From: Nitrospinota bacterium
GTDB lineage: Bacteria > UBA8248
Direction: 5' to 3'
Assembly: GCA_036231405.1 (NCBI GenBank)
Contig: JAZAHK010000012.1
Coordinates: 17,324-81,323, forward strand
DNA: 64,000 nt
The translations under genes and the position numbers were made by a program. The notes below the pieces were generated by a model. That model had not been told where the DNA came from, did no database searches, and worked only from the letters and a program-made list of their open reading frames with translations. Of the stretch, positions 47,020 through 63,271 are shown piece after piece. The stretch's first letter is position 1; each line of letters starts with the position of its first letter.

Positions 47020-48033
47020 TTAACTAAAAGATGTTCCTAAAAATATTTCCAAAATTATTAAAGGAACAAGGATAACTTTCCCTAAAAACTTTCCTTCAAG
47101 AATATATTCATGGGACTCATTGGCTTCATCAAATTTAAAAACTTTATCTATATTCAAAGAAAGAGAACCCTCTTCCAAAAGAATAGAAAAACGTCTTATT
47201 AATTCAGGCATTTTTGGAAATAAGTTAATAACTGCCAACCCATGAATATGAACATCTTTCGTCATTACTGCAGGAACACGGAATTCAGTTTCAGGGCCTT
47301 TTCCTGTTCCTGTACCAACAATAATAATTTGTCCATCAACACAAACTGCGTCGATGTCCTTATCAAAATTGTCACATGCACACAATTCAACAATCGTATT
47401 CACACCTTTGCCACTTGTAATATCCAGACTTCTTGAAACGAAATCCTCTTCTTTATAATTTATCGTAAAATCTGCCCCTATAGATTTACAAAACTCTGAT
47501 TTTTCTTGAGAACTAACCGTCGTGATTACGACACACCCGAGTCTCTTTGCTAATTGAATTGCAGCAGAACCTACACCACCTGCGCCTCCTTGAATAAGTA
47601 CAAATTCACCAGGTCGAACTTGAGCTTTGATAACCAACGCATTCCAAGCTGTATAGAAAGCAACAGTCATAGAAGCTCCTTGTTCAAAGGAACATGAGGA
47701 TGGAAGAACAGCCGAAGCTTTTGCGTCTAAACGAACAAATTCACAGTATGCACCATCTATCGCTCGACCATAAACTCTTTGTCCTGGGGAGAAGTTACTT
47801 ACCCCATGACCTAGTTTTACAATTTCGCCAGAAGCCTCTGCGCCTGGGATATAAGGTGGCTTCACAAGTTTTGCATATGGATGGTTTGCTGCACGGATAG
47901 CAATATCAACTGGATTAAGACCCACTGCTTGCACTTTAACGAGTATCTCTTCATCTTTGGGTTCAGGAGTGTCTATCTCATCAACTCTCATAGGTGAGTT
48001 TAGATCAAAATCGTGAACTCGAACGGCTCTCAT
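47020..48033 (-). CDS. MDR-family NADPH:quinone oxidoreductase-like protein (paralog 2)
   Basis: 337 aa. GLNPVDIAIRA and VLIQGGAGGVGSAAIQLA. Clearly alignable by eye with paralogs 1 and 3 along the whole length. Confidence 0.8.
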   Translation of the reverse strand: MRAVRVHDFDLNSPMRVDEIDTPEPKDEEILVKVQAVGLNPVDIAIRAANHPYAKLVKPPYIPGAEASGEIVKLGHGVSNFSPGQRVYGRAIDGAYCEFVRLDAKASAVLPSSCSFEQGASMTVAFYTAWNALVIKAQVRPGEFVLIQGGAGGVGSAAIQLAKRLGCVVITTVSSQEKSEFCKSIGADFTINYKEEDFVSRSLDITSGKGVNTIVELCACDNFDKDIDAVCVDGQIIIVGTGTGKGPETEFRVPAVMTKDVHIHGLAVINLFPKMPELIRRFSILLEEGSLSLNIDKVFKFDEANESHEYILEGKFLGKVILVPLIILEIFLGTSFS

Positions 48034-48155: not shown

Positions 48156-49463
48156 TTGCGATTCAAACTTCCCGACAAAGTTATGTATGTCATAAAAACA
48201 ATTAAGGGACAAGGGTTTGATTGTTATTTAGCTGGCGGAACTATTCGAGATCTAATTTTAGGCGATGAACCAAAAGATTGGGATCTTGCAACAAACATTC
48301 ATCGAAAAGAACTCTCAAAATTGTTTCAAAATCAACTAAGTATCAAATCAGATTACCACGTTTCAAAACTAATTTTCGATGACACAGAATTACAAATTGC
48401 AGAGTTTAGAAATGAAGGAGGTTATAAAGACGGTCGTCATCCAGATTTTATTGAAACTGGAGTAACACTTGAAGAAGATGCAAAGAGAAGAGATTTTACA
48501 GTCAATGCAATTTACTATGACCCTATCAAATCAAAAATTTTTGATCATGTGGATGGAATGATTGATATAAAGAAGAAACAGATAAGAACAATAGGGGAAC
48601 CTTCAACTCGATTTTCAGAAGATCATCTAAGAATTCTCAGAGCTATACGTCTGGCTGGAAAACTAAATTTTAAAATTGAGAAAAAGACTTTCAGTGGCAT
48701 TGTCAGCACTTCCAGTTTAACAAAAAAAATTGCAGGAGAAAGAATAACATCTGAAATTTCTTCCATGCTCTTATCAAAAAACACTTTTCATACAATAGAA
48801 CTTTTAGCAAAATCAAAAATTTTGCATCTTTTATTCTCTAGAGATTTAAGTCTGCCAGAATTCAATGAAAAAATTCTAAAAGACTTCAAACATACGAAGA
48901 AAATATTTCAATCGATTTTCACAACTTCATTGCCAGTTTTATGGGCTATTTTTTTAAGAAGTCTATATACCAATCATAATGATAGAAAAGGATCTTCAAA
49001 AATTAGCCCAGATAGTGAGCAAATATGTGACGAAATTTCAAACCTTTTGAAATTAAGGTTGAAGTTTAATAATACCAAGAAAAATCATATTTTAGCTATT
49101 TTTCAGAATCAAGATGCTATTACAAACTCAAACAGGAAGGAAAGCAAAATCTGGAAAAGGACCTTAAGAAAGCCGTTTTTCAAAGAATCTTTAGAGTTCT
49201 ACGGAATTATGCGTACATCTAATAGAAAGGATTTGGAAATATTTGATTTTTGGCAAGAAAAATTAGCAAATACGACACCATCCGAATTTAACCCTAAAAA
49301 GCTTATTAAAGGAAATGACTTGATCAAGTTAGGATTCAAAGAAGGTCCAGAACTACATAAAATCCTTAATGTAATAGAAGAAGAGCAATTAGAAAATAAA
49401 ATAAAAAATAAGGAAGATGCAATAGAGTTCATAGTAAGAAAATTCAAAAAATCAATAAATTAA
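48156..49463 (+). CDS. tRNA nucleotidyltransferase (CCA-adding) / poly(A) polymerase family protein
   Basis: 435 aa. TTG start with GGAG 6 nt upstream. Nucleotidyltransferase head motif YLAGGTIRDLILGDEPKDWDLAT, RRDFTVNAIYYD, and EDHLRILRAIRLA. Confidence 0.8.
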   Translation: MRFKLPDKVMYVIKTIKGQGFDCYLAGGTIRDLILGDEPKDWDLATNIHRKELSKLFQNQLSIKSDYHVSKLIFDDTELQIAEFRNEGGYKDGRHPDFIETGVTLEEDAKRRDFTVNAIYYDPIKSKIFDHVDGMIDIKKKQIRTIGEPSTRFSEDHLRILRAIRLAGKLNFKIEKKTFSGIVSTSSLTKKIAGERITSEISSMLLSKNTFHTIELLAKSKILHLLFSRDLSLPEFNEKILKDFKHTKKIFQSIFTTSLPVLWAIFLRSLYTNHNDRKGSSKISPDSEQICDEISNLLKLRLKFNNTKKNHILAIFQNQDAITNSNRKESKIWKRTLRKPFFKESLEFYGIMRTSNRKDLEIFDFWQEKLANTTPSEFNPKKLIKGNDLIKLGFKEGPELHKILNVIEEEQLENKIKNKEDAIEFIVRKFKKSIN

Positions 49464-49490
49464 AGATGGATTTTTGGAGGCAAACTTAGT

Positions 49491-50045
49491 TTGAGAGATA
49501 TGAGCAAATACAACCTTCTTGTAAACGAAGAAGGTCTCATGAAAATTATAAAAAAGATTGCATCAGAAATAGAGAGTTCAATTCTTAAAGAAGAACAAAT
49601 AGCAATCATTGGCATAAAAACACGCGGAGAACCCTTAGCATATCGTATAAAAAAAATCATAAACAAAATAAATCCCAGAAGAGAAATTTTACTAGGGTAT
49701 ATTGACATAGGAGAACATCGTGACGATTTCACTAAATTTAGTCCTATACCACCTTCTAGAGACACAAGAATTGATTTTGATATACAGGGGAAATCTTTGT
49801 TTTTGATTGACGATGTTTTTAATACTGCCAGAACTACAAGAGCAGCAATCGATACTATTTTAGAATATGGGAGACCTTCAAGAATATGGTTAACTGTTCT
49901 AATTGACAGAGGGCACCGCGAGTTACCATTCATTCCAGACATAACTGGGAAAAATATACCTACAGCGAAAGATGAACACATATTTGTTCGTCTAAAAGAA
50001 ACAGACAATCAAGATGGAATATGGTTACAAAAAAGCGAAAATTAA
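49491..50045 (+). CDS. Second PyrR-family protein (PyrR/uracil phosphoribosyltransferase paralog)
   Basis: 184 aa. Collinear with PyrR at 28561-29091 (AIIGIKTRGEPLAYRI, LGYIDIG..RDD, PRPP loop LFLIDDVFNTARTTRAAI, LTVLIDRGHRELPFIPDITGKN). Lies 27 nt downstream of the cca-like gene. The minus-strand ORF 49460-50008 is its shadow. Confidence 0.75.
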   Translation: MRDMSKYNLLVNEEGLMKIIKKIASEIESSILKEEQIAIIGIKTRGEPLAYRIKKIINKINPRREILLGYIDIGEHRDDFTKFSPIPPSRDTRIDFDIQGKSLFLIDDVFNTARTTRAAIDTILEYGRPSRIWLTVLIDRGHRELPFIPDITGKNIPTAKDEHIFVRLKETDNQDGIWLQKSEN

Positions 50046-50096: not shown

Positions 50097-51320
50097 TTAG
50101 AAATATTTCTGTCCAGTATCTACGGTTGCATTCCATTCAGCATCTGTATCAAAAGGCCCTAATCCATTCTCCTTGACGTAGGCAACTCTACTATCATTTG
50201 CCGTTCCATCAGAAAATAATCTCGAGAACCAGTCTAAAATGTATTGATGATTATCCAAACCTCCTAAATTCTTTAAATTCACAAGTGGATGGAACTGATT
50301 TTCAAAAACCCACATTTCTTTTTTACAAGTCAGATCATTAAATACTTCAATTGCATCTTCAAGAGGGCAAAGGGGATCAAACTCCCCTGTAACCAATAGA
50401 GTCGGACATTGTATTTTGTCCATATACCCTTTTACTGTCATTTCTTTAGCCATTTTGTCGAATTCATCCTCATCATCCATCCCTGCCATGTACATAAAGA
50501 CTTGTTTAAATCTGGGAGAAGACTCTGTGAAAATTGTATTGTTGGGATTAAAACACGCAACTGCACTCGCTACTGCTGCCGCCCTATGGTCATAACTAGC
50601 TAAACGCAATGACCAATAACTTCCCATACTGATTCCATAAATTCCAAGTTTTGATGAATCAACTTCTTCTCTTTCTAACAGGTAATCGATAACGGCAGCT
50701 CCTGCCCTCTCATAATTATCTCCGACAGCACGGATCTTCTGTATATTTGAGTTTCCTTGCCCAGGACCATCCATTGTAAGAACATGGAATCCTCTTTCTG
50801 CTGCAACATTATGTCTCACATGCGGGAATGATTCTTTAGTTTGATCCATACCAGGAACATAAATAATACATGGAGCATTCCTTCGATCAGGAAGCAAATG
50901 AAGCAAACATGAAATCGTTTTTCCATCATCAAAAGGAACCTCTACCCTCTCAATTGGATAAGGAGCAACTTCAGAACGGCGATCGACCATTTCTTTCAAT
51001 TTATCGCACAAATAAATCTTCACTGGATTGTCATCATAAAAAATAGGATGTTGAGCCATACGGTAAGACTCAACAGCATGATCAAAATGTTCCGTGGCCG
51101 TATGGTTGAATCCTTCCTTCTGCGCCTTTTTCCCAAGATTTTCGTGGAACTCTCCAGCCTCTCTCCAAACCTTTGGTAACATCTGATAGTTGTGCGCAGT
51201 CTTTCCTTCTGGCACCTCTAAATAATCTCTCTCAAAGTTCTGAACCCTACCCCTCGTTTTTAGAGCAAGATCTAACATCCACTGCTGATTATCTCTTTTA
51301 GTTCTAAGATTTTTGATCAT
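50097..51320 (-). CDS. Large alpha/beta-fold hydrolase with N-terminal helical domain (possibly a C-C bond hydrolase/esterase)
   Basis: 407 aa. Nucleophile elbow GISMGS (GxSxG), with downstream Asp (GEFDPLCP) and His (NQFHPL) candidates. Size and layout recall the 2,6-dihydroxypseudooxynicotine-hydrolase/FrsA-like group; this is an inference only. Confidence 0.65.
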   Translation of the reverse strand: MIKNLRTKRDNQQWMLDLALKTRGRVQNFERDYLEVPEGKTAHNYQMLPKVWREAGEFHENLGKKAQKEGFNHTATEHFDHAVESYRMAQHPIFYDDNPVKIYLCDKLKEMVDRRSEVAPYPIERVEVPFDDGKTISCLLHLLPDRRNAPCIIYVPGMDQTKESFPHVRHNVAAERGFHVLTMDGPGQGNSNIQKIRAVGDNYERAGAAVIDYLLEREEVDSSKLGIYGISMGSYWSLRLASYDHRAAAVASAVACFNPNNTIFTESSPRFKQVFMYMAGMDDEDEFDKMAKEMTVKGYMDKIQCPTLLVTGEFDPLCPLEDAIEVFNDLTCKKEMWVFENQFHPLVNLKNLGGLDNHQYILDWFSRLFSDGTANDSRVAYVKENGLGPFDTDAEWNATVDTGQKYF

Positions 51321-51376
51321 TTTCTCCTCCTTTTAATTTCAAAATTATTTTTTCATATAAAAAAATCAAAAGATTT

Positions 51377-52558
51377 TTAAGAATGCGGGAGTAGGACTCC
51401 AAACTCTCGCAGCCTCAATATCTCATCATCGCCTAATCCAAATTCAGATAGAATTTCGTCAGTGTGCTCCCCCAATATGGGAGGAGGCAATCTCACTGTA
51501 GATGGGGTCTCACTAAATCTAACAGATGGAGCAATCATTTTCAATTTTCCATATTTTTCATGGACTATTTCTGACAAATAAGACATAGCCTCCATTTGTT
51601 CATCTTCAAGCAAACGTGCAGGCAATCTCACCTTTGCACACGGGACTTCTGCTTTATCAAATCTTTTAACCCAATCATCTGCAGTTTTTTTAAGTAAGGC
51701 GTTTTGCACAAGGGGAATAATCTCACCTCTTGAATCATGGCGATCTCTAAAAATTTTCCACTTAGAATTTTCAGTCAATTCAGACAATCCAAGTACTCCA
51801 CATGCCCTTTTCCAGAATCTGTCAACATCCATATACAAGTAAATATGTCCGTCCAAAGTATTATATATCCTTGCTATTCGATCAGTTAGTGGATCTCGAA
51901 CATTCTCAAGCTTTTCCCTATCACTTGCCCAAGTAAGTCTTCCTTGTTGTAAGGAAGCAGCACCCCCTAGTAGAGATGAATCTATATACTGACCCAACCC
52001 GCTTCTTTCTCTTGAAAACAATGCCATAGAAACTGCAGTACTAGACAAAGAACCAGTAAAATAATCTATGAAATGACCTTGAACAAGCTGTGGATCTTCA
52101 CTACTACCCTGTTCGGCTGGAATACCGGAATAGGTCTGAACAATTGGATCTATGCCTCTTCTTGATTTCAAAGGACCAGATTGTCCAAAGGCTGAAATTG
52201 AAAGATAAACAAGCCTTGAATTACGTTTAATTAGTTCCTTTGGACCAAGACCAAGATTTTCTACGACACCTGGACGATAACCCTCTACAAAAACATCGAT
52301 CTCTTCGCACATTTTAAGAACTAATTCTTTTCCCACATCTTCTTTCAAATTTATCGCTATACTCCGTTTATTTCTGTTCAAACCTAAAAACAAACGGCTC
52401 TCTCCATCAAATGTAGATGGAAACTCCCTGATAATATCACCACCCAAAGGCTCCAACTTAATTACATCTGCACCAGCATCTGCAAGTAGCAATGTACAAA
52501 ATGGCCCAGCTACATAATGGGTAAGATCTAAAACCTTGATTCCATCTAGAGAACCCAT
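51377..52558 (-). CDS. Family III CoA-transferase (CaiB/BaiF/Frc family)
   Basis: 393 aa. LDGIKVLDLTHYVAGPFCTLLLADAGADVIKLEP is the canonical N-terminus of this family. Confidence 0.88.
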   Translation of the reverse strand: MGSLDGIKVLDLTHYVAGPFCTLLLADAGADVIKLEPLGGDIIREFPSTFDGESRLFLGLNRNKRSIAINLKEDVGKELVLKMCEEIDVFVEGYRPGVVENLGLGPKELIKRNSRLVYLSISAFGQSGPLKSRRGIDPIVQTYSGIPAEQGSSEDPQLVQGHFIDYFTGSLSSTAVSMALFSRERSGLGQYIDSSLLGGAASLQQGRLTWASDREKLENVRDPLTDRIARIYNTLDGHIYLYMDVDRFWKRACGVLGLSELTENSKWKIFRDRHDSRGEIIPLVQNALLKKTADDWVKRFDKAEVPCAKVRLPARLLEDEQMEAMSYLSEIVHEKYGKLKMIAPSVRFSETPSTVRLPPPILGEHTDEILSEFGLGDDEILRLREFGVLLPHS

Positions 52559-52570
52559 AGTTATCCCATA

Positions 52571-53545
52571 TTAAACAGACAGCACAATTTTCCCAAACAC
52601 AGACCCTGTCATTAAAATCTCGTGTGCACGTGGAGCATCGGATAAGTCGAGGACTTCACCTACAACTGAACGAATCTTTCCATCACGAAGTAAAATTTCT
52701 AATTGATTAGTCATGCTAGAGAAAAAACAATCAGAATTAAAAAGACTCATTCCTCTAACATCAATATCTTTTGAATAAAAAGGTGGATACGTTACAGTTC
52801 CACTAGGTTGTTTGCCAGTCCCTGACCCTAATAAAACAATAGTTCCAAATTTTTTCACGGCCTGACAATCTGAATCAAAATTTTCACTTGCAACCATTTC
52901 AATAATCGAATCGACACCTCTTCCAGATGTTTTCTCTATGCATTTGGAAACCCAATCTTCCTCGTGATAATTAAAAACATTATCTGCTCCTAAACCCTTA
53001 CAAAATTCAGCTTTCTCTTGAGAACTAACCGTACAAAAAACATTAGCTCCTGCCGTCTTCGCAATCTGTATTGCCATACTTCCAACTCCCCCGGCTCCAC
53101 CATGAATTAAAACCGTCTCTCCTGGCTTTATGGAAGCTTTATACACAAGAGCGTAATATGCTGTATATAAAACACACGGGAAGGAAGCTCCTTGAATAAA
53201 ATCAAAATTATCAGGCAATATCGCAGACCGGTGTGCACTCAAAAGAGAAAGTTCTGCATAGCTTCCACTTAAAGAGTTTCCAAAAACTCTATCTCCATTT
53301 TTGAAATTTTCTACTCCCTCACCTACGGCAACGACCTTACCTGAGGCATCAATACCTGGAATCCAAGGTAATTTCAACCCTTTAGATAGAGGATGCGCAC
53401 CAGAACGGAAAGTTGTGTCGACCGGATTGACACCTGCCCCTTTAACTTCAATGAGGATTTCTCCTTCTGAGGGAATTGGGTCATCAATCTCTCCTAATTT
53501 CATAACGCTAGGTTCTCCAAAGGAATTAACCTGAATTGCTTTCAT
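52571..53545 (-). CDS. MDR-family NADPH:quinone oxidoreductase-like protein (paralog 3)
   Basis: I place the start at ATG 53545 (MKAIQVNSFGEP), preceded by GGAGGTG. The ORF extension up to 53629 is probably untranslated. GVNPVDTTFRSG and VLIHGGAGGVGSMAIQIA. Confidence 0.8.
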   Translation of the reverse strand: MKAIQVNSFGEPSVMKLGEIDDPIPSEGEILIEVKGAGVNPVDTTFRSGAHPLSKGLKLPWIPGIDASGKVVAVGEGVENFKNGDRVFGNSLSGSYAELSLLSAHRSAILPDNFDFIQGASFPCVLYTAYYALVYKASIKPGETVLIHGGAGGVGSMAIQIAKTAGANVFCTVSSQEKAEFCKGLGADNVFNYHEEDWVSKCIEKTSGRGVDSIIEMVASENFDSDCQAVKKFGTIVLLGSGTGKQPSGTVTYPPFYSKDIDVRGMSLFNSDCFFSSMTNQLEILLRDGKIRSVVGEVLDLSDAPRAHEILMTGSVFGKIVLSV

Positions 53546-53687
53546 TTTCTTTACACCTCCCGAAAAAATATGTTTTTGATTTTTTATAAACGTTTCAAGA
53601 AATCTATACCTAGAAAGAAATTCAATCAATCATCGAATCTAATAAGAAATTAATTATTAATTCATAACTAGTAAGTCCAATTAGTTG

Positions 53688-53717
53688 CTTGACAAGAAAA
53701 GCGAGCGGAAGATATGG
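53688..53717 (+). promoter_or_regulatory. Candidate sigma70-type promoter for the TAXI-TRAP/VOC/MBL/ACS operon
   Basis: Exact TTGACA at 53688-53693, an 18-nt spacer, then TATGGT at 53712-53717, about 150 nt upstream of the ATG at 53869. A perfect AT-only inverted repeat AATTAAT-t-ATTAATT sits at 53647-53661 just upstream. Confidence 0.25.
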
Positions 53718-53868
53718 TCTTATTACACATTAAACTTTAATTTTATGGTTCTCAAGGAAACGAGAGTAACTAGGAGTTTACATAAGTTTGCTACTTGTAT
53801 CATGCAGAATTTCTCACAATGTGTTTTCGTGGACACTGAAATGTTTTTTAACTAAGGAGGAGTTTTCA

Positions 53869-54867
53869 ATGCGTAAAATCTTTTTTGTTTTTATTTCAAC
53901 ACTAGTTGTTGTTGTTTTTGGATTAAGTTCTGCAAACGCTTTAGAAAGATATAAATTTGGTAGTGGTCCTGCTGGTGGTGGTTGGAATCCTGCTATTGGT
54001 GCAGGCGTTCAACTTCTCAATAAATCTGTAGCGGGCAAAGGTCTAAAATTTGCCCACGTTCCATCTCAAGGTTCTGTGGCAAATATACGTCGAGTTGCAA
54101 AGGGAAGTTTCCATACTACTTGGGGACACATTGTTCAAGTGGTACAACAATGGAATGGAACTGGAAAATTTAAAAAAGATGGAGTCCAAAGAGATTTCAG
54201 AATTGTTGCGAATGTTCGAGCACAATCACAGATTATTGCAGTACTTGCAGATAGCCCAATCAAGTCTTTTTCTGACATGGTCGGAAAAAGAGTAAATCTA
54301 CTCTCTCGTGGAACAGGAAGTAATGTGAACTGTATGAATATTTTCAAGGGCGCTGGAATTTTTGATAAAATTAAAAAACGTTTTCTCGGATTCCGTGATT
54401 CGGGCAGAGCATTAGGTGATCGTCAAATAGATGTTTACTGTTCTGCGGGTGCACCGTTCACGATTCCTGCACTTACCCAACTATCTGTCAGAAAACCTGT
54501 CCGTTACGTTGGCCTAAGTAAATCTGAACAAAAAAAAGTTGTTAGTTCCTTTCCTTTCTATACCCCAATTACAGTCCCACCATTAGCAGAGGTGAAAGGA
54601 CAGACTACCCATGCAAGGTCTATTGCATATGACGTTTTCTGGGTCGCACATAAATCTATGTCTGACAAAGGCATTTCCGCAATGTTGAGTACAATTGCAG
54701 ATCCAGGGAATCTAAAGAAACTAACAAAAGCTGCAAGGTATTGGGCTAAATTAAGTGGAAGATTTGACAACCTTAAAGTGCACAAGGTATGGGTTCATCC
54801 TGCTGCTGCCCGTTACTGGAGGAGTCGTGGAACGAAGGTACCAGGTAGCGTGGTAAAAGGTTACTAA
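53869..54867 (+). CDS. TAXI-family TRAP transporter solute-binding protein
   Basis: Start at ATG 53869 (MRKIFFVFISTLVVVVFGLSSANA signal peptide), preceded by AAGGAGG. YKFGSGPAGGGWNPAIGAGV resembles the TAXI G-x-GG-x-GG-x-Y/W N-terminal motif. Confidence 0.8.
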   Translation: MRKIFFVFISTLVVVVFGLSSANALERYKFGSGPAGGGWNPAIGAGVQLLNKSVAGKGLKFAHVPSQGSVANIRRVAKGSFHTTWGHIVQVVQQWNGTGKFKKDGVQRDFRIVANVRAQSQIIAVLADSPIKSFSDMVGKRVNLLSRGTGSNVNCMNIFKGAGIFDKIKKRFLGFRDSGRALGDRQIDVYCSAGAPFTIPALTQLSVRKPVRYVGLSKSEQKKVVSSFPFYTPITVPPLAEVKGQTTHARSIAYDVFWVAHKSMSDKGISAMLSTIADPGNLKKLTKAARYWAKLSGRFDNLKVHKVWVHPAAARYWRSRGTKVPGSVVKGY

Positions 54868-54883
54868 AAGTAGATTTCAATTT

Positions 54884-54914
54884 TTGAGAGGGGCGATAAA
54901 TTCACCCCTCTCAA
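54884..54914 (+). other. Intercistronic stem-loop between binding-protein and permease genes
   Basis: Perfect 10-bp stem UUGAGAGGGG / CCCCUCUCAA with an 11-nt loop (cgataaattca), and no strong downstream U tract. It starts 17 nt after the TAXI stop and ends 45 nt before the permease start. Confidence 0.6.
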
Positions 54915-54959
54915 AACATTTCGTTGCTTTCATAATTTCATAGAATTTTAGGAAAATAG

Positions 54960-57437
54960 ATGCTTAAAAGATTGATGCCCCTTTTAATTAAAATTGGGAT
55001 TATATCTGAAGAATTTGTCGAGCCCAGAAAAATTTCTGGTATTTCTCGTATTTTTATATCGATAATAGCAGTTGGATTCTCTTATTTCTTCATACATGTA
55101 GCTTTTTTTGGTCCACCAATTACTGAAATTTTCAAAGGCACATATATTTTAGGCACAGCTCTCCTAACTCTCCTATTGTATAAAGGAAGACAAAAAACCA
55201 TCCGTCAAAATTTTGTGATTTTGGATGAACTATTTGCATTCTTATCTATCACTACAATATGTACCTTTAGTGCAATTTGGCTATATTGGTTTTTTATTTC
55301 TCCCGTTGAAGCTTGGAATAAATTTTATGGAACTACTCCATTTCTAGTCGGTGTTGCCGGTTCGATAATAGGTGCCTTAATCTACTTAAAAGAAGCAACT
55401 ACTCCAGTAAATAATCGTTTGTCTATTTCTGATTTTATTTATATATCAGGAGTAACAGCATCGATGATTTGGTGGCGTTATGCCAATGAAACTCTTCAAG
55501 AAGAAATGGGTGGAGATGTTCCCACAATTCTAGTTATAGCTGCATGGCACGTTATCCCGGTTAGTATGGAAATAGCGAGAAGGGTCGTGGGGCCCATTAT
55601 TCCACTCATAGGTTTTTGTTTTTTAGTATACAGTTTCAGACCTGTCGCACATACTTTTCCAGGGCTCCTTTGGCATGATGGGAATAACATTGACCGAATT
55701 TCTGAATTTCTGATGCTTCAGACTGAAGGAATCACAGGTCTAATTGCCGATGTTTTTGCAAATTACATGGTCATTTTTGTTGTACTTGGAGCATTCCTAG
55801 AAAAAACTGGTCTAGGTGCGCTTTTCATAGATACAACTTATCGTCTTACAGGTCAAAAAACTGGAGGGCCAGGACTAACTGCAGTCGTTTCCAGTGGTCT
55901 TTTCGGCATGATATCCGGAAGTGGAGTTGCAAACGTTGTCACAACGGGAACATTTACAATTCCTCTTATGAAGAGAGTGGGTTATAAACCTGAATTTGCA
56001 GGCGCTGTCGAAGCATCTGCTTCCACCGGCGGCGCGTATATGCCGCCTATTATGGGTTCGGGTGCTTTTTTACTAGCGCAGTTTACAGAGATCAGCTATT
56101 TCGAAGTTATAAAATACGCTATTATACCTGCAATTCTATACTATTTATCAGTTGGTTATATAGTATATATTCGAGCGGTTAACAGGGGTCTAACAGGGGT
56201 TCCTGTTTCAGAGTTGCCCCTGTGGAGTAAAATAGTACCCAGACTGTATCTCCTTATTCCTATTCCTTTAATGGTTTATTATTTGGTAGTTGGTGATTCG
56301 GCTTTCCTTGCAGCTTTTAAAACTATTTGTGCTATTGTTTTATTGAAAACTACGGATTTGCTTACATCCATACGAACTCCTTTTACAAGAAAATTCTCAA
56401 AACCAATTCTTTTCTTGACTATTGGACTAGGAACTATCGTCTATTTCTTTGGACTAAAAATAGGTGCACCCTTTTCATGGTTCGCTGATACCCAAAGAGG
56501 GTTAAACTTTGGAGATGCCATTTTTTGGACTTTAGTTTTCTACACAGTTTTGAAGATTTTTGAAGTACTACTTGCTTCTTTCACACATCATGGCATGAAA
56601 CAAGATTCCCTTTCAGAAGAAACATCTGAGACAGAAGTTTGTGGAACTAATGCTTTAATTTCACTGAAAGAAAGATCTGTAGATTTAGTTAAATCGATCT
56701 GGATATCCTTAGAGTCAGGTGCAAAAAGCTCCGTAATCGTAGGTTGTATTGCTGGAGTCCTGAGTATTCTTTTATCAACTGCAACACAGTGTGATTTGCC
56801 GGGAAGAGTTTCAGATCTACTCATACAATTTAGTTTTGGACTCTTGCCGATGACGATATTTTGGATAATCGTTGCCGGATATATTGTCGGTATGGGTCTA
56901 CCAATTGCGGCTAGTTACGTTGTTCTTGTGATTTTTGGAGTTTTATCACTAACAAATTTAGGTGTCCCAACCCTTGCAGCTCATTTAATCTGTTATTGGG
57001 TCGCAGTTGTTAGTGCTGTAACACCCCCAGTCGCATTGGCAGCATATGCAGCAAGTGCAATAGCATCGTCAGACCCTATTAAAACTGGATTCCAGGCCAT
57101 GAAGCTTTCATCATGGATTTTTATTATGCCTTTTTTGTTTGTATATACTCCACTTCTTTTAACAGGTACTTACTTTGAAATTTCAGTTACCATTCTTGCT
57201 TGCCTTTTAGGAATTATTGCCTGGGCAAGTTTCATGGAAAATTTCCTAATAAAACAAACTAAATTATTAGAGTGGGTCTTACTCTTTTTTGCATCTATTT
57301 GCCTACTGCTTCCAGTCGATAATTTGCTCACATGGGTTTCTCCTTTGAAAGGTCAATTCGATTGGATTTTTTACTCTATAGGAGCCATTTTATTAGTCTC
57401 AACATTTTTACTACAAACTAAAAGGCAAGAAGCGTAA
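54960..57437 (+). CDS. TRAP transporter fused (4TM/12TM) permease, TAXI-associated type
   Basis: 825 aa. Highly hydrophobic with many TM segments. The size and position right after a TAXI receptor are typical of the fused DctQM-like permease. Confidence 0.8.
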   Translation: MLKRLMPLLIKIGIISEEFVEPRKISGISRIFISIIAVGFSYFFIHVAFFGPPITEIFKGTYILGTALLTLLLYKGRQKTIRQNFVILDELFAFLSITTICTFSAIWLYWFFISPVEAWNKFYGTTPFLVGVAGSIIGALIYLKEATTPVNNRLSISDFIYISGVTASMIWWRYANETLQEEMGGDVPTILVIAAWHVIPVSMEIARRVVGPIIPLIGFCFLVYSFRPVAHTFPGLLWHDGNNIDRISEFLMLQTEGITGLIADVFANYMVIFVVLGAFLEKTGLGALFIDTTYRLTGQKTGGPGLTAVVSSGLFGMISGSGVANVVTTGTFTIPLMKRVGYKPEFAGAVEASASTGGAYMPPIMGSGAFLLAQFTEISYFEVIKYAIIPAILYYLSVGYIVYIRAVNRGLTGVPVSELPLWSKIVPRLYLLIPIPLMVYYLVVGDSAFLAAFKTICAIVLLKTTDLLTSIRTPFTRKFSKPILFLTIGLGTIVYFFGLKIGAPFSWFADTQRGLNFGDAIFWTLVFYTVLKIFEVLLASFTHHGMKQDSLSEETSETEVCGTNALISLKERSVDLVKSIWISLESGAKSSVIVGCIAGVLSILLSTATQCDLPGRVSDLLIQFSFGLLPMTIFWIIVAGYIVGMGLPIAASYVVLVIFGVLSLTNLGVPTLAAHLICYWVAVVSAVTPPVALAAYAASAIASSDPIKTGFQAMKLSSWIFIMPFLFVYTPLLLTGTYFEISVTILACLLGIIAWASFMENFLIKQTKLLEWVLLFFASICLLLPVDNLLTWVSPLKGQFDWIFYSIGAILLVSTFLLQTKRQEA

Positions 57438-57438
57438 A

Positions 57439-57828
57439 ATGAATGTAATTGAATCATTTCACCATGTTCATCTTATATGCGCTGACCCCGTAAAAACTTC
57501 GCGGTGGTATGTCAGCGTATTGGGAGCAGAAATTACACACGAAGAAAAAAAACATGGCGCTATAAACATAAGATTATTAATAGGGGACCTAAATCTCTTC
57601 ATACGTGCATTAAGAGAAAACGAAGAATTTCCCTTAGAACAAAACCATTTACAGGAAGGTATCCATCATATTGGTCTTATGGTTGACGACATACAAGAAA
57701 TGATGAAAGAAACTACAGAAAATGGAGCAATAGAAATAGAAGAAATCCATACTGGAACAACAGGCAATTGGGTTGCATTTATTAGAACCCCTGAAGGAGT
57801 GTTAATTGAATTCCTCCAAAAAAAATAA
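57439..57828 (+). CDS. VOC-family protein (glyoxalase I / methylmalonyl-CoA epimerase-like single module)
   Basis: 129 aa. Metal-ligand pattern FHHVHL ... IHHIGLMV ... GVLIEFLQ. The start lies 1 nt after the permease stop. Confidence 0.75.
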   Translation: MNVIESFHHVHLICADPVKTSRWYVSVLGAEITHEEKKHGAINIRLLIGDLNLFIRALRENEEFPLEQNHLQEGIHHIGLMVDDIQEMMKETTENGAIEIEEIHTGTTGNWVAFIRTPEGVLIEFLQKK

Positions 57829-58486
57829 CGACAAGAAACAGATAAATACAAAATCAAAAGACAAATCATTCTCCCCGAAATTAAATCGTATCCAACACGT
57901 TGGGATTAAAGTACACAATCTAGATTTGGCGGTTGAATTTTATAGAGACGTCATGGGAATGAGAATTTCTGACAGATATGAACCTGGAGACAATCCACAT
58001 AATCCCTGGGGAATCTGTTTCATGAGAAGTGGTCATCTCCATCACGAAATATCTCTTGTCGGTTACGCGAAAGAAGAAAACCTCAAACCAAACGAAATTG
58101 GATTCAGAGAACCTGGAGTAGGCCTGCATCACATTGCATTTGAAGTAGATTCAAAAGAAGAATTTATGTCCTGGGTAGAACACTTAAAAAAACATGGAAT
58201 TGAATTTGCTGCTGGTCCATTAGTTCATAGCCCTACACATCCTGAGGGAGACGGCACACTTGGCGAAAATAGGGCTCTATACTTTTACGATCCTTCTGGA
58301 AACGGAATCGAAATTTTCTGTGATTTGGCACCAATCGACGATAATAACAATTCTATAAATGAGAAATGGTTTAGGGATCGTTTGGAGAAAGATGGATATT
58401 CCAGAGATGCATCCAATCCATCTAGGCCATGGGAACCCGGTCGTTCAAGTATGGAAGACGCTCTCGAAAAATTTGGAAAAAAATAA
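57806..58486 (+). CDS. VOC-family protein, one-domain extradiol-dioxygenase-like
   Basis: 226 aa. TTG start with GAAGGAG 6 nt upstream and a Lys-rich N-terminal tail. IQHVGIKV, LHHIAFEV and ALYFYDPSGNGIEIF resemble the His/His/Glu ligand segments of type I extradiol dioxygenases. Overlaps the preceding gene by 23 nt. Confidence 0.7.
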   Translation: MNSSKKNNDKKQINTKSKDKSFSPKLNRIQHVGIKVHNLDLAVEFYRDVMGMRISDRYEPGDNPHNPWGICFMRSGHLHHEISLVGYAKEENLKPNEIGFREPGVGLHHIAFEVDSKEEFMSWVEHLKKHGIEFAAGPLVHSPTHPEGDGTLGENRALYFYDPSGNGIEIFCDLAPIDDNNNSINEKWFRDRLEKDGYSRDASNPSRPWEPGRSSMEDALEKFGKK

Positions 58487-58534
58487 GAATTTACCTGATA
58501 TTTCATTTTTTTAAATATTTATTCCGGAGAATAA

Positions 58535-59350
58535 GTGGATAATCAAAATTGGTATAATGTTCAGGAATTTGCCCCTGAGACTTTTCAGTTCAATGAAGCT
58601 GAACTTTGGAACATGTTTCTGATAATAGGCGAAGAAAAAGCTCTATCTATTGATGGAGGAATTGGAATAGGAAGTGTGCGGAAACTCTGTGAGAGTATCA
58701 CGTCCCTCCCTATTGAACATATCCTTACCCATACTCACTGGGATCATTTAGGCTCTATCCATGAATGGGATTCCATATCTGTTCATAAAAACGGGGAGGG
58801 AAATCTCAATAATGATTTTGCAGAAGGCTGTAAAGACTTTGTTTTAAATTGGACGGGGAAATCATTTCCTAAAGGTTTTTTTCCAGAAAACTTCAAGTTA
58901 AAACCTGGAGTATTTGGTCAATCCTTATGTGAAGGTCAGATAATTGATCTTGGGAATAGGAGACTACACATATATGAAACACCTGGTCATTCACCAGATA
59001 GCATATCAATTTATGATGAAAAAGAATCTGTATTAATAACTGGAGATTTAGTAAAACCACACATGCCACTTTTTTTACAAGTGCCTACTGCTGTGCTCTC
59101 GGATTATGGTCCCTCTTTAAGAAAGCTTGAATCAATTGCAAAAGAAAACAAAGTGCAATGGATATGCTCGGGGCATTCAGAGCCATTCACTGACATAAGT
59201 ATAATAGGAGAAATGGCTGACTTCGTTGAGAAAATTGAAAATGACACCCTAGACAAGCCAGATAAAATTCAAGCAGGTAAATGGGGAATGGTAGATGAAT
59301 ATCGCGCAGAAAGATTTCAAGTTTGGATTAACGATAACGCGCGTAGATAG
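58535..59350 (+). CDS. Metallo-beta-lactamase-fold hydrolase
   Basis: 271 aa. GTG start with GGAG upstream. HxHxDH motif (LTHTHWDHLG), downstream ETPGHSPDS, and a GD..SGH ligand pattern. Confidence 0.8.
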   Translation: MDNQNWYNVQEFAPETFQFNEAELWNMFLIIGEEKALSIDGGIGIGSVRKLCESITSLPIEHILTHTHWDHLGSIHEWDSISVHKNGEGNLNNDFAEGCKDFVLNWTGKSFPKGFFPENFKLKPGVFGQSLCEGQIIDLGNRRLHIYETPGHSPDSISIYDEKESVLITGDLVKPHMPLFLQVPTAVLSDYGPSLRKLESIAKENKVQWICSGHSEPFTDISIIGEMADFVEKIENDTLDKPDKIQAGKWGMVDEYRAERFQVWINDNARR

Positions 59351-59364
59351 TATAAAGGCATAAG

Positions 59365-61311
59365 ATGACAAACAAGAATGTGATCTGGCAACCAAACGAA
59401 GACTTTTTGCAAAACAGTAATATTGCTCTCCTGATGAAAAAATTAAATTTCACAGATTATCGAGAATTTCTTGCGTGGTCTGTAAAAGACATTCATAGTT
59501 TCTGGGAAATCATCTTGGAAGATATGAATTTTCAATGGCATAAAAAATATCACACACTATTAGATCTTAGTGATGGTTTCCCTTGGGCTAAATGGTTCGT
59601 AGGTGGAGAAACCAATATAGTAACAAACTGTTTGGACAGACATCTTCATGGCAGCCGTAAGAGTAAAACTGCGTTAATCTGGGAAAGTGATGATGGCAAT
59701 AAAATAACTTTCACATACGAGCAACTCTCTGAGGAAGTGAATAAAGTTGCTAATGCTTTGAGAAACTCAGGATTAAAACCAGGAGACGTCGCTGGAGTTT
59801 TCCTTCCACTTTTACCCGAAGCAGTCATAGCAATGTACGCATGCTTTAAGACTGGTATCGCTGTACTCCCAATTTTCTCTGGATTTGGTCCTGAAGGACT
59901 CGCAGAGAGACTTATTCATTCGAAAGCAAAAATTTTATTTACTTCAGATGGTGCAATTAGAAGAGGAAAAACAATACCACTCAAAAACACGGTAGATTCA
60001 GCTTTAAAACAAGAAACATCTATACAGAAAGTTATACTAGTTGAAAGAGCAGAAATTGAGGTCAACTTACAAGAAGGCAGAGATCTAACTTGGAACGAAT
60101 TTATATCTTCTGAATCTGATAACTCGGAAACAGAGAATTTACCTGCTAACGCAATTTCAATGATTATGTATACCTCAGGGACCACTGGAAAACCGAAAGG
60201 TACTGTATATTCGCATGCCGGATTGATGAGTGGACCTGGAAGAGAATTAAAATACTGCTTTGATATGAGAGATAACGATACAATGTTCTGGGTTACTGAT
60301 TTCGGGTGGGTAATGGCCCCTTATGAACTTGTTGGTTCGCATTTTAATGGACACTCATGTTTCCTCTACGAAAGCGTTCCAAATCACCCTGAACCAGACA
60401 GACTTTGGAAAATCATTTCCAATTCAAACATCACACATCTTGGACTATCACCTACAGCGGTAAGAGTTTTAATTGGAGAAGGAAACAATTGGGTAGATAA
60501 ACATGATCTTTCCTCTTTAAGAATCCTTGGCTCTACTGGGGAACCTTGGGACGCAGAATCTTATCTTTGGTATTTCAATAAAGTCGGATCAAAGAAATGT
60601 CCAATCATGAATATTTCCGGGGGAACGGAAATAGGCGCTTGTATACTACAACCACTACCCGTCATGGATCTAACTCCATGCACACTTGGAGGCCCTGCAA
60701 TGGGGACTGATGCAGATGTCTTTGACGATGAAGGTAATCCAATTAGGAATGAAGTTGGTCATCTCGTCTTGAAACAACCTATCCCTTCTTTAACAATGGG
60801 ATTTTTAAACGATTCAGAAAGATATTTAGAAACTTATTTTTCTCGCTGGGATAATGTTTGGTACCACGGGGACTGGGCTAAAGTCGATGAGGATGGATTC
60901 TGGTATCTTTTCGGGCGTTCAGACGACACGATTAAAGTTTCGGGGAAAAGAATTGGTCCTAACGAAATTGAATCAGAACTTCAAAAACATCCCGGGGTTA
61001 TAGAAACTGCAGTTATAGGAACTCCTCATCCTGTAAAAGGAGAAGCTATTACCTGTTTTATAGTTCTTGCAAACGGATATGAACCCAACGATAAAATGAG
61101 GGAAGAACTCAAGGATCAAGCGGTCAAATATTTGGGGAAAAGTCTTAGGCCAGACGAGGTAAAATTTGTAGAGTATCTTCCTAAAACTAGATCTGCAAAA
61201 ATTGTAAGAGGAGCAATCAAAAAAATCTATCTTGGAGAAGATATCAAACACATGGACTTAAGTTCCCTTGAAGACTCCGCACATCTTGATGCTATTAAAG
61301 AAGCAAAATAA
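59365..61311 (+). CDS. AMP-forming acyl-CoA synthetase, acetyl-CoA synthetase family (paralog A)
   Basis: 648 aa. ACS-type N-terminal domain (FWEIILEDMNFQW, PWAKWFVGGETNIVTNCLDRHL), AMP-binding motif YTSGTTGKPKG, GSTGEPW, YHGDWA, GRSDDTIKVSGKRIGPNEIE, and a C-terminal LPKTRSAKIVRG. Confidence 0.88.
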   Translation: MTNKNVIWQPNEDFLQNSNIALLMKKLNFTDYREFLAWSVKDIHSFWEIILEDMNFQWHKKYHTLLDLSDGFPWAKWFVGGETNIVTNCLDRHLHGSRKSKTALIWESDDGNKITFTYEQLSEEVNKVANALRNSGLKPGDVAGVFLPLLPEAVIAMYACFKTGIAVLPIFSGFGPEGLAERLIHSKAKILFTSDGAIRRGKTIPLKNTVDSALKQETSIQKVILVERAEIEVNLQEGRDLTWNEFISSESDNSETENLPANAISMIMYTSGTTGKPKGTVYSHAGLMSGPGRELKYCFDMRDNDTMFWVTDFGWVMAPYELVGSHFNGHSCFLYESVPNHPEPDRLWKIISNSNITHLGLSPTAVRVLIGEGNNWVDKHDLSSLRILGSTGEPWDAESYLWYFNKVGSKKCPIMNISGGTEIGACILQPLPVMDLTPCTLGGPAMGTDADVFDDEGNPIRNEVGHLVLKQPIPSLTMGFLNDSERYLETYFSRWDNVWYHGDWAKVDEDGFWYLFGRSDDTIKVSGKRIGPNEIESELQKHPGVIETAVIGTPHPVKGEAITCFIVLANGYEPNDKMREELKDQAVKYLGKSLRPDEVKFVEYLPKTRSAKIVRGAIKKIYLGEDIKHMDLSSLEDSAHLDAIKEAK

Positions 61312-61315
61312 GAAC

Positions 61316-63271
61316 ATGCCAAAAAAGAAAAATTCCGAGATCATATGGAACCCGAATCAGGATTTCATGAATAGAAGCAACATCGCTCTATTGATGAAAA
61401 AGAACAACATTGCAAACCATTCAGAACTAATAAAGTGGTCACAAAAAGATTCTACTCCCTTCTGGGAAATTATTTTAGAAGAAATGAAAATTGAATGGTA
61501 TGAGGAATTTCGAGAAGTGTTAGATTCTAGCAAGGGTTTCCCCTGGGCAAAATGGTTTTCGGGTGGAAAAATCAACATTGCTCATAATTGTATCGACAAA
61601 CATCTCACCAACGGAAAGGGGGGGCATCTTGCACTGATATGGGAAGGAGATGATGGAAGTAAAAGAACATTTACCTATGAGGAAATGTCTTCTGAGGTAT
61701 CTAAACTTGCAAATGCCATGAAGGAATCTGATCTTAAAGTTGGAGATACAGCAGCAATTTTCATGCCTATGGTTCCAGAAACTATTTTTGCAATGTTTGC
61801 TTGCTTTAAAATAGGTGTAATAGCGGTCCCTATTTTTTCTGGCTTCGGACACGAAGCTGTTGCCGAACGCCTTACAAACGCACAAGTCCAACTTGTATTT
61901 ACTTCGAATTATGGACTTCGAAGAGGGAAGATAATAGCTATCAAAGAACTATTAGACAAAGCACTTCAAATTAATACCTCTGTAAAAAAAGTGATTGTCT
62001 ACGAAAGGACTGAAAGTTCCTATTTTACTCAAAATAATCGAGATATAAAATGGCGCGACTTTATACATAACAAGTCTATAACAGCTGAAACAATACAACT
62101 AGACTCTGAAGCAATTTCCATGATCATTTATACTTCCGGAACAACTGGGAAACCAAAGGGAACATTACACACTCATGCAGGGTGTCTAACTACCATCACT
62201 AAAGAAGTTAAATACTGCATGGATCTAAGAGATAACGATATTCTTTTCTGGCTTACTGACATAGGGTGGATGATGGGACCCTGGGAAATGATTGGGACTC
62301 AGTGTCTTGGACAAACTTATCTTGTATATGAAGGGACACCAAATTGGCCCAAACCAGACAGAATTTGGAAACTCATATCCGATCATAAAGTCACACATCT
62401 CGGGATTTCTCCTACTGCTATTCGTTTACTTATAAGTAGTGGTGAAAAATGGACAAAAAATTACGATCTTTCAACCTTAAGAGTTCTTGGTTCAACTGGA
62501 GAGCCATGGGATCCTGAATCATATATGTGGTTTTTTGAGAAAATAGGAAATAAACGTTGCCCGATAATGAACATTTCTGGTGGAACAGAAATTTGTGGAT
62601 GCCTTTTACAACCTTATCCAATTATGGAGTTATCAAAGTGTTCACTAGGAGGTCCTGCTTTAGGAGTTCATACTGACGTCTTCAATGAAGAAGGTAAACC
62701 TATCCGCGGAGAAATAGGACATCTTGTCTGCAAAAAACCGATGCCCTCGATGACTAAAAGTTTTCTTATGGATGACAATCGATATTTAGAGACCTATTTC
62801 TCGAGATTTCCCAACACCTGGTATCACGGGGATTGGGCGATGGTTGATGAATTTGACCAATGGTTTCTCTATGGTAGATCAGACGATACAATCAATGTGG
62901 CAGGGAAGCGAGTAGGTCCTGCTGAGGTCGAATCTGAGTTAATTCGTCACCCCTCTGTTGTTGAGGCTGCAGTCATTGGTACTCCCCATCCTATAAAAGG
63001 CGAAGTTCTAACGTGTTTCGTAGTTATCAAGGATGAATTTGATGCCTCCGATCAGCTTAGAGAAGAGTTGAAAGATGAAACAACAAAATATTTAGGAAAA
63101 AGTCTACGTCCTGAGACAGTTAAATTTGTTGAAGGGTTACCCAAAACTAGATCTTCTAAAATCGTAAGAGGCGCAATCAAGAAGTTGTTTTTAGGAACTA
63201 GTATAAACGAAATCGACACCTCTTCTATAGAAGATCCAACACTTTTAGACGCTATTTCGAGGGCAAAATAA
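61316..63271 (+). CDS. AMP-forming acyl-CoA synthetase, acetyl-CoA synthetase family (paralog B)
   Basis: Start at ATG 61316 (MPKKKNSEIIWNP), 4 nt after the paralog A stop; the ORF opens at 61268 inside the upstream gene. Same motif set (YTSGTTGKPKG, GSTGEPW, GRSDDTINVAGKRVGPAEVE, LPKTRSSKIVRG). Collinear with paralog A at roughly 55-60% identity by eye. Confidence 0.88.
   Translation: MPKKKNSEIIWNPNQDFMNRSNIALLMKKNNIANHSELIKWSQKDSTPFWEIILEEMKIEWYEEFREVLDSSKGFPWAKWFSGGKINIAHNCIDKHLTNGKGGHLALIWEGDDGSKRTFTYEEMSSEVSKLANAMKESDLKVGDTAAIFMPMVPETIFAMFACFKIGVIAVPIFSGFGHEAVAERLTNAQVQLVFTSNYGLRRGKIIAIKELLDKALQINTSVKKVIVYERTESSYFTQNNRDIKWRDFIHNKSITAETIQLDSEAISMIIYTSGTTGKPKGTLHTHAGCLTTITKEVKYCMDLRDNDILFWLTDIGWMMGPWEMIGTQCLGQTYLVYEGTPNWPKPDRIWKLISDHKVTHLGISPTAIRLLISSGEKWTKNYDLSTLRVLGSTGEPWDPESYMWFFEKIGNKRCPIMNISGGTEICGCLLQPYPIMELSKCSLGGPALGVHTDVFNEEGKPIRGEIGHLVCKKPMPSMTKSFLMDDNRYLETYFSRFPNTWYHGDWAMVDEFDQWFLYGRSDDTINVAGKRVGPAEVESELIRHPSVVEAAVIGTPHPIKGEVLTCFVVIKDEFDASDQLREELKDETTKYLGKSLRPETVKFVEGLPKTRSSKIVRGAIKKLFLGTSINEIDTSSIEDPTLLDAISRAK

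Follow-up and report, generated by a model that had tools for sequence, protein, structure and literature searches.

A divergent gene island of a marine Nitrospinaceae genome sets a candidate one-domain extradiol dioxygenase and a TAXI-TRAP transporter against a conserved alpha/beta hydrolase

What is the divergent gene island at positions 50097-63271 of this 64,000-nt stretch of a Nitrospinota genome (hereafter the window) for, and do its genes serve a single pathway? The window is part of contig 12 in a metagenome-assembled genome (MAG) of a low-GC marine member of the Nitrospinaceae (2.09 Mb, 92% complete). The minus-strand operon of the island encodes a quinone oxidoreductase (QOR), a family III CoA-transferase (CoAT) and an alpha/beta hydrolase (ABH). 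Its plus-strand operon encodes a TAXI-family TRAP solute receptor, a fused TRAP permease, two vicinal-oxygen-chelate proteins (VOC1 and VOC2), a metallo-beta-lactamase-fold hydrolase (MBL) and two acyl-CoA ligases of the acetyl-CoA synthetase family (ACS1 and ACS2). An original prediction, made from the sequence alone, had described these ten genes as two operons diverging from a 323-bp spacer, and the coordinates of the open reading frames (ORFs) together with Pfam and NCBIfam searches confirmed the gene positions, the gene families and the arrangement. It had offered two alternatives for their function: (a) uptake of a carboxylate that is activated and processed as a CoA thioester, or (b) ring cleavage by an extradiol-type VOC enzyme and a C-C hydrolase. 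We found that the stable element of this locus across the family is ABH facing an operon led by VOC2, and that three modules, the transporter, the QOR/CoAT pair and the tail of the plus operon, are exchangeable.

VOC2 (57806-58486, plus strand; 226 aa) is a one-domain protein that resembles type I extradiol dioxygenases. A profile of 14 VOC2 orthologs was aligned to XylE and other catechol 2,3-dioxygenases (5znh, 1mpy) and to 3b59. The metal ligands H31, H109 and E169 of VOC2 aligned with H153, H214 and E265 of XylE and were invariant in the 14 orthologs and in five paralogs, and the second-sphere residues H80, H141 and Y159 aligned with the catalytic H199, H246 and Y255. The C-terminal motif YFYDPSGNGIE fits the corresponding half of the extradiol signature, Y-x2-[DE]-P-x-G-x2,3-E, and the N-terminal half of the PROSITE extradiol pattern is broken by a nine-residue, family-specific insertion (PEGDGTLGE). 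As judged from this alignment, VOC2 holds the full catalytic residue set of type I extradiol dioxygenases, and ring-cleaving activity is predicted.

The VOC2 family is small and centred on the Nitrospinota, a word-limited search having returned 65 of 5.8 billion clusters, and has 4-11 copies per Nitrospinaceae genome. The genome studied here carries five copies, and all five keep the catalytic residues. The other copies lie at C23:30229-30744, C9:9641-10165, C33:45238-45771 and C36:26219-26746, and the common signature is HS(P)THPEGDG..GENR..Y..DP.GN..EI.CD. Their contexts include M24 peptidase and amidohydrolase_2 genes, a CLC channel and a 3-hydroxyisobutyrate dehydrogenase, and an NAD synthase and a nitrilase. 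The one-domain extradiol dioxygenases of the Rhodococcus BphC2/BphC3 type likewise consist of a single VOC module pair of ~190-200 aa, and the Atlas neighbours of VOC2 include a 'biphenyl-2,3-diol 1,2-dioxygenase 2' (one-domain BphC2) cluster at 0.90, which we treat as a lead only. VOC2 differs from these enzymes in belonging to a narrow, Nitrospinota-centred family.

The hydrolase on the opposite strand, ABH (50097-51320, minus strand; 407 aa), matched the Pfam FrsA-like/Peptidase_S9 group, scoring 50.7 bits against PF06500 (FrsA-like) where the cut-off is 22. Its best PDB match by sequence was 2jbw, a 2,6-dihydroxy-pseudo-oxynicotine (DHPON) hydrolase. An AlphaFold2 (AF2) model of ABH reached a mean confidence (pLDDT) of 81, and Foldseek ranks 1-20 for this model contained only 2jbw (E 1e-20, TM 0.79), Wdyg1p/Ayg1p, AntI, FrsA and SMU_737. 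The protein thus modelled has an alpha/beta core with a helical N-terminal domain and is nearest in fold to the DHPON-hydrolase/Ayg1/AntI/FrsA clade. Its catalytic triad, S231 in a G-x-S-x-G elbow (GISMG), D315 and H344, was invariant across 26 homologues. The two-domain architecture and the Ser-Asp-His triad are the same in 2jbw, Ayg1p/Wdyg1p and AntI; these proteins are only 17-22% identical to ABH, which is known from sequence and model, and they come from a nicotine plasmid or from melanin or anthraquinone biosynthesis. Characterised members of the DHPON-hydrolase/Ayg1/AntI group cut C-C bonds beside hydroxylated aromatic ketones, and FrsA-type members are esterases.

ABH is also unusually well conserved. 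In a phylum sample of 51 genomes, ABH orthologs occurred in 44, among them every one of the 42 from the family; the VOC2 family occurred in 45 and orthologs of the TAXI receptor in 32. Identity of ABH to the window protein was 79-95% in most Nitrospinaceae and 74-76% in two genera, and orthologs in other phyla (GC 31-70%) were still 71-78% identical. Outside the Nitrospinota, ABH adjoins genes for a tandem-OsmC protein, a short-chain dehydrogenase (SDR), an IlvD/Edd dehydratase, an amidohydrolase_2, a cyclase, or TTT or DctP transporters, and some orthologs there stand alone beside glyQS.

To compare the island across the family, an alignment of the TAXI receptor was scanned over one genome per species, and each of the 80 resulting loci was scored with the window proteins. 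In the gene orders below, '<>' marks a divergent junction. The closest public locus was found on an uncultured Nitrospinaceae MAG from Tara Oceans, in which the TAXI receptor shares 90% identity with that of the window and the island is collinear throughout. Roughly 25 loci of Nitrospinota/'Tectomicrobia' (54-70% GC) have the order ABH-CoAT-QOR <> TAXI-TRAP-VOC2 and are 58-69% identical to the window, except for ABH at ~83%. After VOC2, these ~25 loci continue with a D-2-hydroxyacid dehydrogenase (2HADH), a citrate/2-methylcitrate synthase (TIGR01800), a short PRK07229-type aconitase and a PrpF-like protein. This tail was considered as a possible methylcitrate module that would make propionyl-CoA the product; its aconitase is of the short PRK07229 type and not AcnD. 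The module is absent from the genome studied here, whose sole PrpF homolog, at 33% identity, is encoded at another site.

Other members of the family have rearranged the locus further. MBL, ACS1 and ACS2 are restricted to two genera, that of the window and one other. In two of the four species of the window's genus (G049, G050) and on a Tara scaffold the order is QOR <> VOC1-VOC2-MBL-ACS1-ACS2. In these loci (L099, L101, L105) TAXI-TRAP is cleanly gone from between QOR and VOC1 and the promoter block described below is kept; no TAXI ortholog was found elsewhere in the genomes of the TAXI-less congeners. A closed 3.7-Mb genome of the other genus (G045) has ABH <> VOC2-(Ser/Thr kinase)-MBL-ACS1-ACS2, with no QOR, CoAT or transporter, and G053 has ABH-CoAT-QOR <> VOC2-2HADH-2HADH-PrpF. 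QOR and CoAT are usually present in the related loci. In all full-length loci of the family but three, which have no VOC2, ABH and a VOC2-led operon diverge. The neighbourhood survey thus bore out the claim that these genes co-occur in related genomes, in that the core survives across the family. Across the ~60 related loci compared, the picture is a mosaic, and the idea of ten genes fixed around a transporter is not supported, since TAXI-TRAP is missing in half of the congeneric species and the enzymes are retained there.

The two genes that accompany ABH would fit CoA-thioester and enone chemistry. CoAT (51377-52558, minus strand) matched PF02515 over residues 1-366 of 366 with 340 bits. It stayed below every NCBIfam equivalog for this family (formyl-CoA, succinate-glutarate, mesaconate, carnitine; 114-198 bits against cut-offs of 413-750). 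Its best PDB match was succinate-hydroxymethylglutarate CoA-transferase (SUGCT; 1e-56), followed by Rv3272 and YfdE, so that by sequence CoAT appears closest to dicarboxylate-type enzymes. A candidate catalytic aspartate, D165 (HFIDYFTG), falls within the region expected for it. QOR (52571-53545, minus strand), a medium-chain dehydrogenase/reductase and probably an NADPH quinone/enone oxidoreductase of the zeta-crystallin/PIG3 type, scored 261 bits against TIGR02824, slightly under the cut-off of 296.8, and had human zeta-crystallin (1yb5, 1e-57) as its best PDB match; a GAGGVG motif was found. Matches to the YhdH/AcuI-type families were weak (95 and 86 bits). It is the third such paralog of the window and is 41-45% identical to the two QORs at 45991-48033; the three zeta-crystallin-type paralogs lie within 7.6 kb and are kept in relatives. 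A route from dimethylsulfoniopropionate (DMSP) or acrylate through PrpE and AcuI was considered and is not supported, as QOR resembles the PIG3/zeta-crystallin and not the YhdH/AcuI type and no DMSP lyase family is present. In the nearest relative, a 135-aa hot-dog protein resembling FlK (fluoroacetyl-CoA thioesterase family) is encoded between CoAT and QOR (L002:8303-8710, minus strand), where the window has a 12-nt gap.

On the plus side, VOC1 (57439-57828; 129 aa) resembles methylmalonyl-CoA epimerase (MMCE) and glyoxalase I. It matched PF00903, scored 49.7 bits against TIGR03081, which is below the cut-off, and is present in the window's genus (g1) only. MBL (58535-59350, plus strand) is a lactonase or thioesterase candidate of the binuclear-zinc type. 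It matched PF00753 with 60 bits and has HTHWDH at residues 66-71 (a full HxHxDH motif), with H152, D171 and H224 as candidates for the later ligands. No named subfamily was reached, and the PDB matches were weak, with no close characterised relative. MBL orthologs neighbour the VOC2 and ACS genes in both g1 and a second genus, g6.

ACS1 (59365-61311) and ACS2 (61316-63271), both on the plus strand, are 58% identical to each other and fell below the acetate-CoA ligase cut-offs, with 608.7 and 607.6 bits, respectively, against 724.95 for TIGR02188, and 622.6 and 629.7 bits against 657 for PRK00174. The ATG at 61316 that we took as the ACS2 start gives a 4-nt gap; a longer ORF begins at a TTG at 61268. 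Both ligases have the same three Pfam domains as the Acs of Salmonella enterica (PDB 1pg4/2p2f), at a similarity level of ~46%, and share the catalytic lysine motif PKTRSAK. They differ from it in lying under the equivalog cut-offs and in having SGGTE (NISGGTE) where WWQTE is conserved. The position of the second tryptophan, which we take to be the Trp414 that walls the acetate pocket of the S. enterica enzyme, is a glycine in both, and two further presumed acetate-pocket positions also differ. Because this pocket tryptophan is replaced by glycine, acetate is unlikely to be the main substrate of ACS1 and ACS2, and their acyl pocket is probably widened.

The transporter is clear in type. The receptor (53869-54867, plus strand) scored 138.7 bits against TIGR02122 (cut-off 84.35), and its N-terminus, MRKIFFVFISTLVVVVFGLSSANA, is a typical Sec signal peptide. 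The permease (54960-57437, plus strand; 825 aa), a fusion of the Q and M subunits, scored 493.6 bits against TIGR02123 (cut-off 320.65) and lies on the same strand 92 nt downstream of the receptor gene. This gap contains a GC-rich hairpin, seen by direct reading of the sequence (54884-54914, plus strand), with a perfect 10-bp stem (TTGAGAGGGG...CCCCTCTCAA), an 11-nt loop and no U-tract after it. TAXI-TRAP systems of known ligand, as named in the titles of PDB entries and of one paper, likewise combine a receptor with a fused Q-M permease. The solved TAXI proteins matched the window receptor only remotely (E 1e-15 or weaker), and their ligands are therefore not transferable to it. Orthologs that are 58-68% identical make up the 32 found in the phylum sample, and many occur in Alphaproteobacteria too. 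In marine Rhodospirillaceae/Alphaproteobacteria (L040, L048 and similar loci), a ~60%-identical TAXI-TRAP pair stands divergent from a TauD/TfdA-family Fe(II)/2-oxoglutarate dioxygenase. These loci then carry an FrsA-like hydrolase with an HpcH lyase, MaoC, a CoA-transferase and an acyl-CoA dehydrogenase, or a thiamine-diphosphate (ThDP) enzyme with FAH and a class II aldolase. A second divergent island, paralogous to this one, was found on contig C36 of the same genome (L098: 8333-15388), with MBL and a VOC2-family gene <> TAXI, a fused TRAP permease, an enoyl-CoA hydratase and CoAT; it adjoins cytochrome oxidase genes.

How might these proteins work together? We tentatively favour, with confidence a little short of even, one route in which a catechol-like (vicinal diol or enediol) carboxylate is imported, cleaved in the extradiol manner, hydrolysed at a C-C bond and processed as CoA thioesters. 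Here we infer the substrate class, the order of the steps and the service of both operons to one route. The TAXI receptor and the fused permease would import the carboxylate, and VOC2, as an Fe(II)- or Mn(II)-dependent one-domain extradiol-type dioxygenase, would open the ring. ABH would then cut a C-C bond of the ring-fission product, a vinylogous 1,3-dicarbonyl. The fragments would go on as CoA thioesters, a dicarboxylate by way of the SUGCT-like CoAT, and an enone or enoyl group would be reduced by QOR. In the window's genus, ACS1 and ACS2, with their Trp-to-Gly pocket, may activate larger or substituted monocarboxylates, and the MMCE-like VOC1 and MBL may act on thioester or lactone intermediates. 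Transcription would start from a conserved promoter of the sigma-70 type, with no regulator encoded nearby.

On this account readings (a) and (b) of the original prediction do not stand as alternatives and merge into a hybrid, (b) describing the upper and the thioester chemistry of (a) the lower route. The pairing of an extradiol VOC enzyme with a C-C hydrolase has the most direct support, from the residues of VOC2, the fold of ABH and the survival of the pair when other genes are lost. For the lower route, the SUGCT-like CoAT, the wide-pocket ACS ligases and, in the nearest relative, the FlK-like thioesterase favour thioester chemistry.

A number of observations weigh against one route. Sequence cannot separate C-C hydrolysis from ester hydrolysis in ABH, which stays a candidate for either activity. 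The ABH orthologs of other phyla have no VOC2, QOR or TAXI ortholog with them, and all but one have no CoAT ortholog; since the contexts differ there, the substrate of ABH may be unrelated to the product of VOC2. The AF2 model of VOC2, built on the 14-sequence alignment, was too weak for a fold search (pLDDT 60, pTM 0.54). No aldehyde dehydrogenase, tautomerase, hydratase or aldolase of the usual lower meta-cleavage pathway was found in the island. TAXI-TRAP is lost from G049, G050 and the Tara scaffold, VOC2 from three otherwise intact loci (L033, L106, L107), and QOR and CoAT from G045. The alphaproteobacterial TAXI-TRAP orthologs have other partners, namely TauD/TfdA dioxygenases, a ThDP enzyme, FAH, or CoAT with acyl-CoA dehydrogenase, MaoC and HpcH. 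The housekeeping flank of the island, a CCA enzyme and a PyrR-like phosphoribosyltransferase, is as syntenic in the family as the island itself, as are the two further QORs, and for this reason synteny alone is weak proof of function.

Much of this would be expected if the locus were a syntenic patchwork of three or four independent units, co-located by descent: ABH alone, CoAT-QOR, TAXI-TRAP (with or without VOC2), and VOC1/VOC2-MBL-ACS-ACS. The far higher conservation of ABH than of its neighbours, and its occurrence elsewhere without them, fit such a patchwork as well. We nevertheless regard it as rather unlikely. The divergent junction between ABH and the VOC2 operon outlasts every rearrangement, being kept across five layouts of the family at GC contents of 35-70%, and the genes within the operons overlap or are separated by 1-56 nt. 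The C36 locus repeats the enzyme combination of the island in the same genome, and Rhodospirillaceae set an FrsA-like paralog and a family III CoA-transferase beside a TAXI-TRAP ortholog, in a different order; these observations speak for one route.

The same enzymes could instead dispose of quinones and catechols, with the QORs making hydroquinones, VOC2 cleaving them, and ABH and the CoA enzymes clearing the products, in a manner reminiscent of the MhqR regulon of Bacillus subtilis. The cluster of three conserved QORs, the retention of the enzymes where the importer is lost, the expansion of the VOC2 family and a conserved, probably constitutive promoter with no dedicated regulator are consistent with detoxification. 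It seems improbable to us, as a high-affinity carboxylate importer leads the operon in most of the family, two ATP-spending ligases and a CoA-transferase suggest recovery of carbon over disposal, and no thiol-dependent or DoxX-type partners were seen. More improbable still is a purely thioester-based route for a non-aromatic acid (acrylate/3-hydroxypropionate or a C5 dicarboxylate), in which VOC1 and VOC2 would be acyl-CoA epimerases or isomerases, MBL a thioesterase and QOR an enoyl-CoA reductase. VOC1 is indeed MMCE-like, QOR is weakly similar to acryloyl-CoA reductases, CoAT, the ACS ligases and the FlK-like protein of the nearest relative all suit it, and relatives carry a 2-methylcitrate-synthase-type gene and a PrpF-like gene downstream. 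However, VOC2 keeps the extradiol-specific His/His/Tyr second sphere and signature, neither of which an epimerase needs. QOR scores far better as a zeta-crystallin-type than as a YhdH/AcuI-type enzyme, ABH groups with C-C hydrolases of aromatic ketones, and the synthase/aconitase pair of the relatives, with its short aconitase, may be plain central metabolism.

The island as preferred here, one route with ring cleavage upstream of thioester chemistry, may be compared with the bph, xyl and mhp operons, which encode meta-cleavage (extradiol) pathways of aromatic compounds with a C-C hydrolase. It shares with them the catalytic residues of a type I extradiol VOC enzyme, an alpha/beta-fold hydrolase as its partner and a divergent or clustered organisation. 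It differs from these classical operons in that its dioxygenase is one-domain (~200 aa) with the nine-residue insertion, and in that its hydrolase, with 407 aa and a helical N-domain, is of the DHPON/Ayg1/FrsA clade and not of the BphD/XylF/MhpC family. The usual lower-pathway hydratase, aldolase and dehydrogenase genes are missing, and a CoA-based tail of CoAT, QOR and ACS ligases is found instead. The host also differs, being a chemolithoautotrophic nitrite oxidiser. All proteins of the island are members of known superfamilies. As a whole it is organised like a catabolic cluster linked to a transporter, and nothing in it calls for a new mechanism.

We also examined how the island is laid out and expressed. 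QOR starts at 53545 and the TAXI gene at 53869, each with a strong Shine-Dalgarno site ahead of it, and the spacer between them (53546-53868; 30% GC) is hence 323 bp long. A strong site also precedes ABH, and the ribosome-binding sites and promoter type of the island are bacterial. An archaeal origin, which the low GC content and the presence of several ACS genes might suggest, was dismissed in view of these Shine-Dalgarno sites and of the relatives among the Nitrospinaceae. Gaps of 56 and 12 nt separate the minus-side genes. Those between the plus-side genes measure 92, 1, -23, 48, 14 and 4 nt, in agreement with the earlier statement that plus-side gaps are mostly under 50 nt with a single 23-nt overlap, the exception being the 92 nt between receptor and permease.

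Within the spacer, the promoter candidate of the plus operon, TTGACA-18-TATGGT (53689-53718, plus strand), was the best of 27 promoter-like sites of the sigma-70 type, matching at 10 of 12 positions. It was strengthened by comparison, as its block, CTTGACAAGAAAAGCGAGCGGAAGATATGGT, hardly varies among four congeners, regardless of whether the operon begins with TAXI or with VOC1. The -10 hexamer reads TATGGT, TAAGGT or TAAAGT across these congeners, and the 18-nt promoter spacer is itself near-invariant and could hide a binding site. A regulon that shares this motif was not detected: the genome holds one exact site, and matches with three mismatches occurred at the level of controls. A second block, 53593-53632 (minus strand), is near-invariant in the four congeners too and, going by its position and conservation, may be the promoter of the QOR operon.

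The AT-only inverted repeat AATTAAT-t-ATTAATT, which had been put forward as a possible operator, does exist (53648-53662, one base off the earlier 53647-53661). The proposed role did not survive: the repeat is not kept in three congeners, composition-matched simulations gave a chance of ~0.18 for at least one such palindrome, and it is probably a chance occurrence. A riboswitch or other RNA element in the spacer or island was likewise rejected; Rfam gave two sub-threshold chance matches, and the 5' untranslated region is unconserved between congeners. The ORFs between 42507 and the end of the window, and those of the following 7 kb of contig, contain no transcription-factor domain, in line with the earlier view that no such gene lies in or beside the island. 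One closed, high-GC genome of the Nitrospinaceae carries a gene for a Hanks-type Ser/Thr kinase within its VOC2-MBL-ACS-ACS operon (L182:6241-7587, minus strand), and this kinase is a possible lineage-specific regulator.

The surroundings of the island were also recorded. The hydrolase side is flanked by genes for PdxA, a split ThDP decarboxylase, the two further QORs, a CCA-type nucleotidyltransferase and a PyrR-like phosphoribosyltransferase. The last two, of which the former belongs to the CCA-adding/poly(A)-polymerase family, occupy 48156-50045, converge on ABH and keep this position in many high-GC relatives; some PyrR-type proteins act as RNA-binding regulators. Past the window end (L001:101-4712), genes for a Gfo/Idh/MocA oxidoreductase, a LAB_N protein, a GT2 glycosyltransferase, a PMT_2 (ArnT-like) transferase and a DegT aminotransferase look like an Arn-like envelope-modification cluster, beyond which follow a TauE exporter, an amidohydrolase_2 and an EamA transporter.

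What would the island mean for its hosts? The Nitrospinaceae are the main marine nitrite oxidisers, fix much of the carbon of the dark ocean and are usually taken as obligate chemolithoautotrophs; to our knowledge, little is known of their use of organic compounds. A literature search on Nitrospina/Nitrospinae with TRAP or tripartite transporters returned nothing on this cluster. The broader proposal is that the Nitrospinaceae keep a family-wide, O2-dependent ring cleavage of a dissolved aromatic or heterocyclic carboxylate, carried out by a lineage-expanded, previously undescribed one-domain extradiol subfamily and a DHPON-type C-C hydrolase; we put it forward as an unlikely but consequential possibility. 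The island provides an orphan TAXI-TRAP system set among conserved enzyme genes, a compact extradiol subfamily and two non-acetate ACS-type ligases, and it draws attention to a very conserved hydrolase that is widespread in marine bacteria. A gene set for organic-acid import and oxygenolytic breakdown that is kept by the family would be a testable handle on mixotrophy or detoxification in the Nitrospinaceae. If the proposal is true, the metabolism of these nitrite oxidisers would have an organic-carbon (mixotrophic) or detoxifying side, with several TAXI-TRAP systems dedicated to such compounds.

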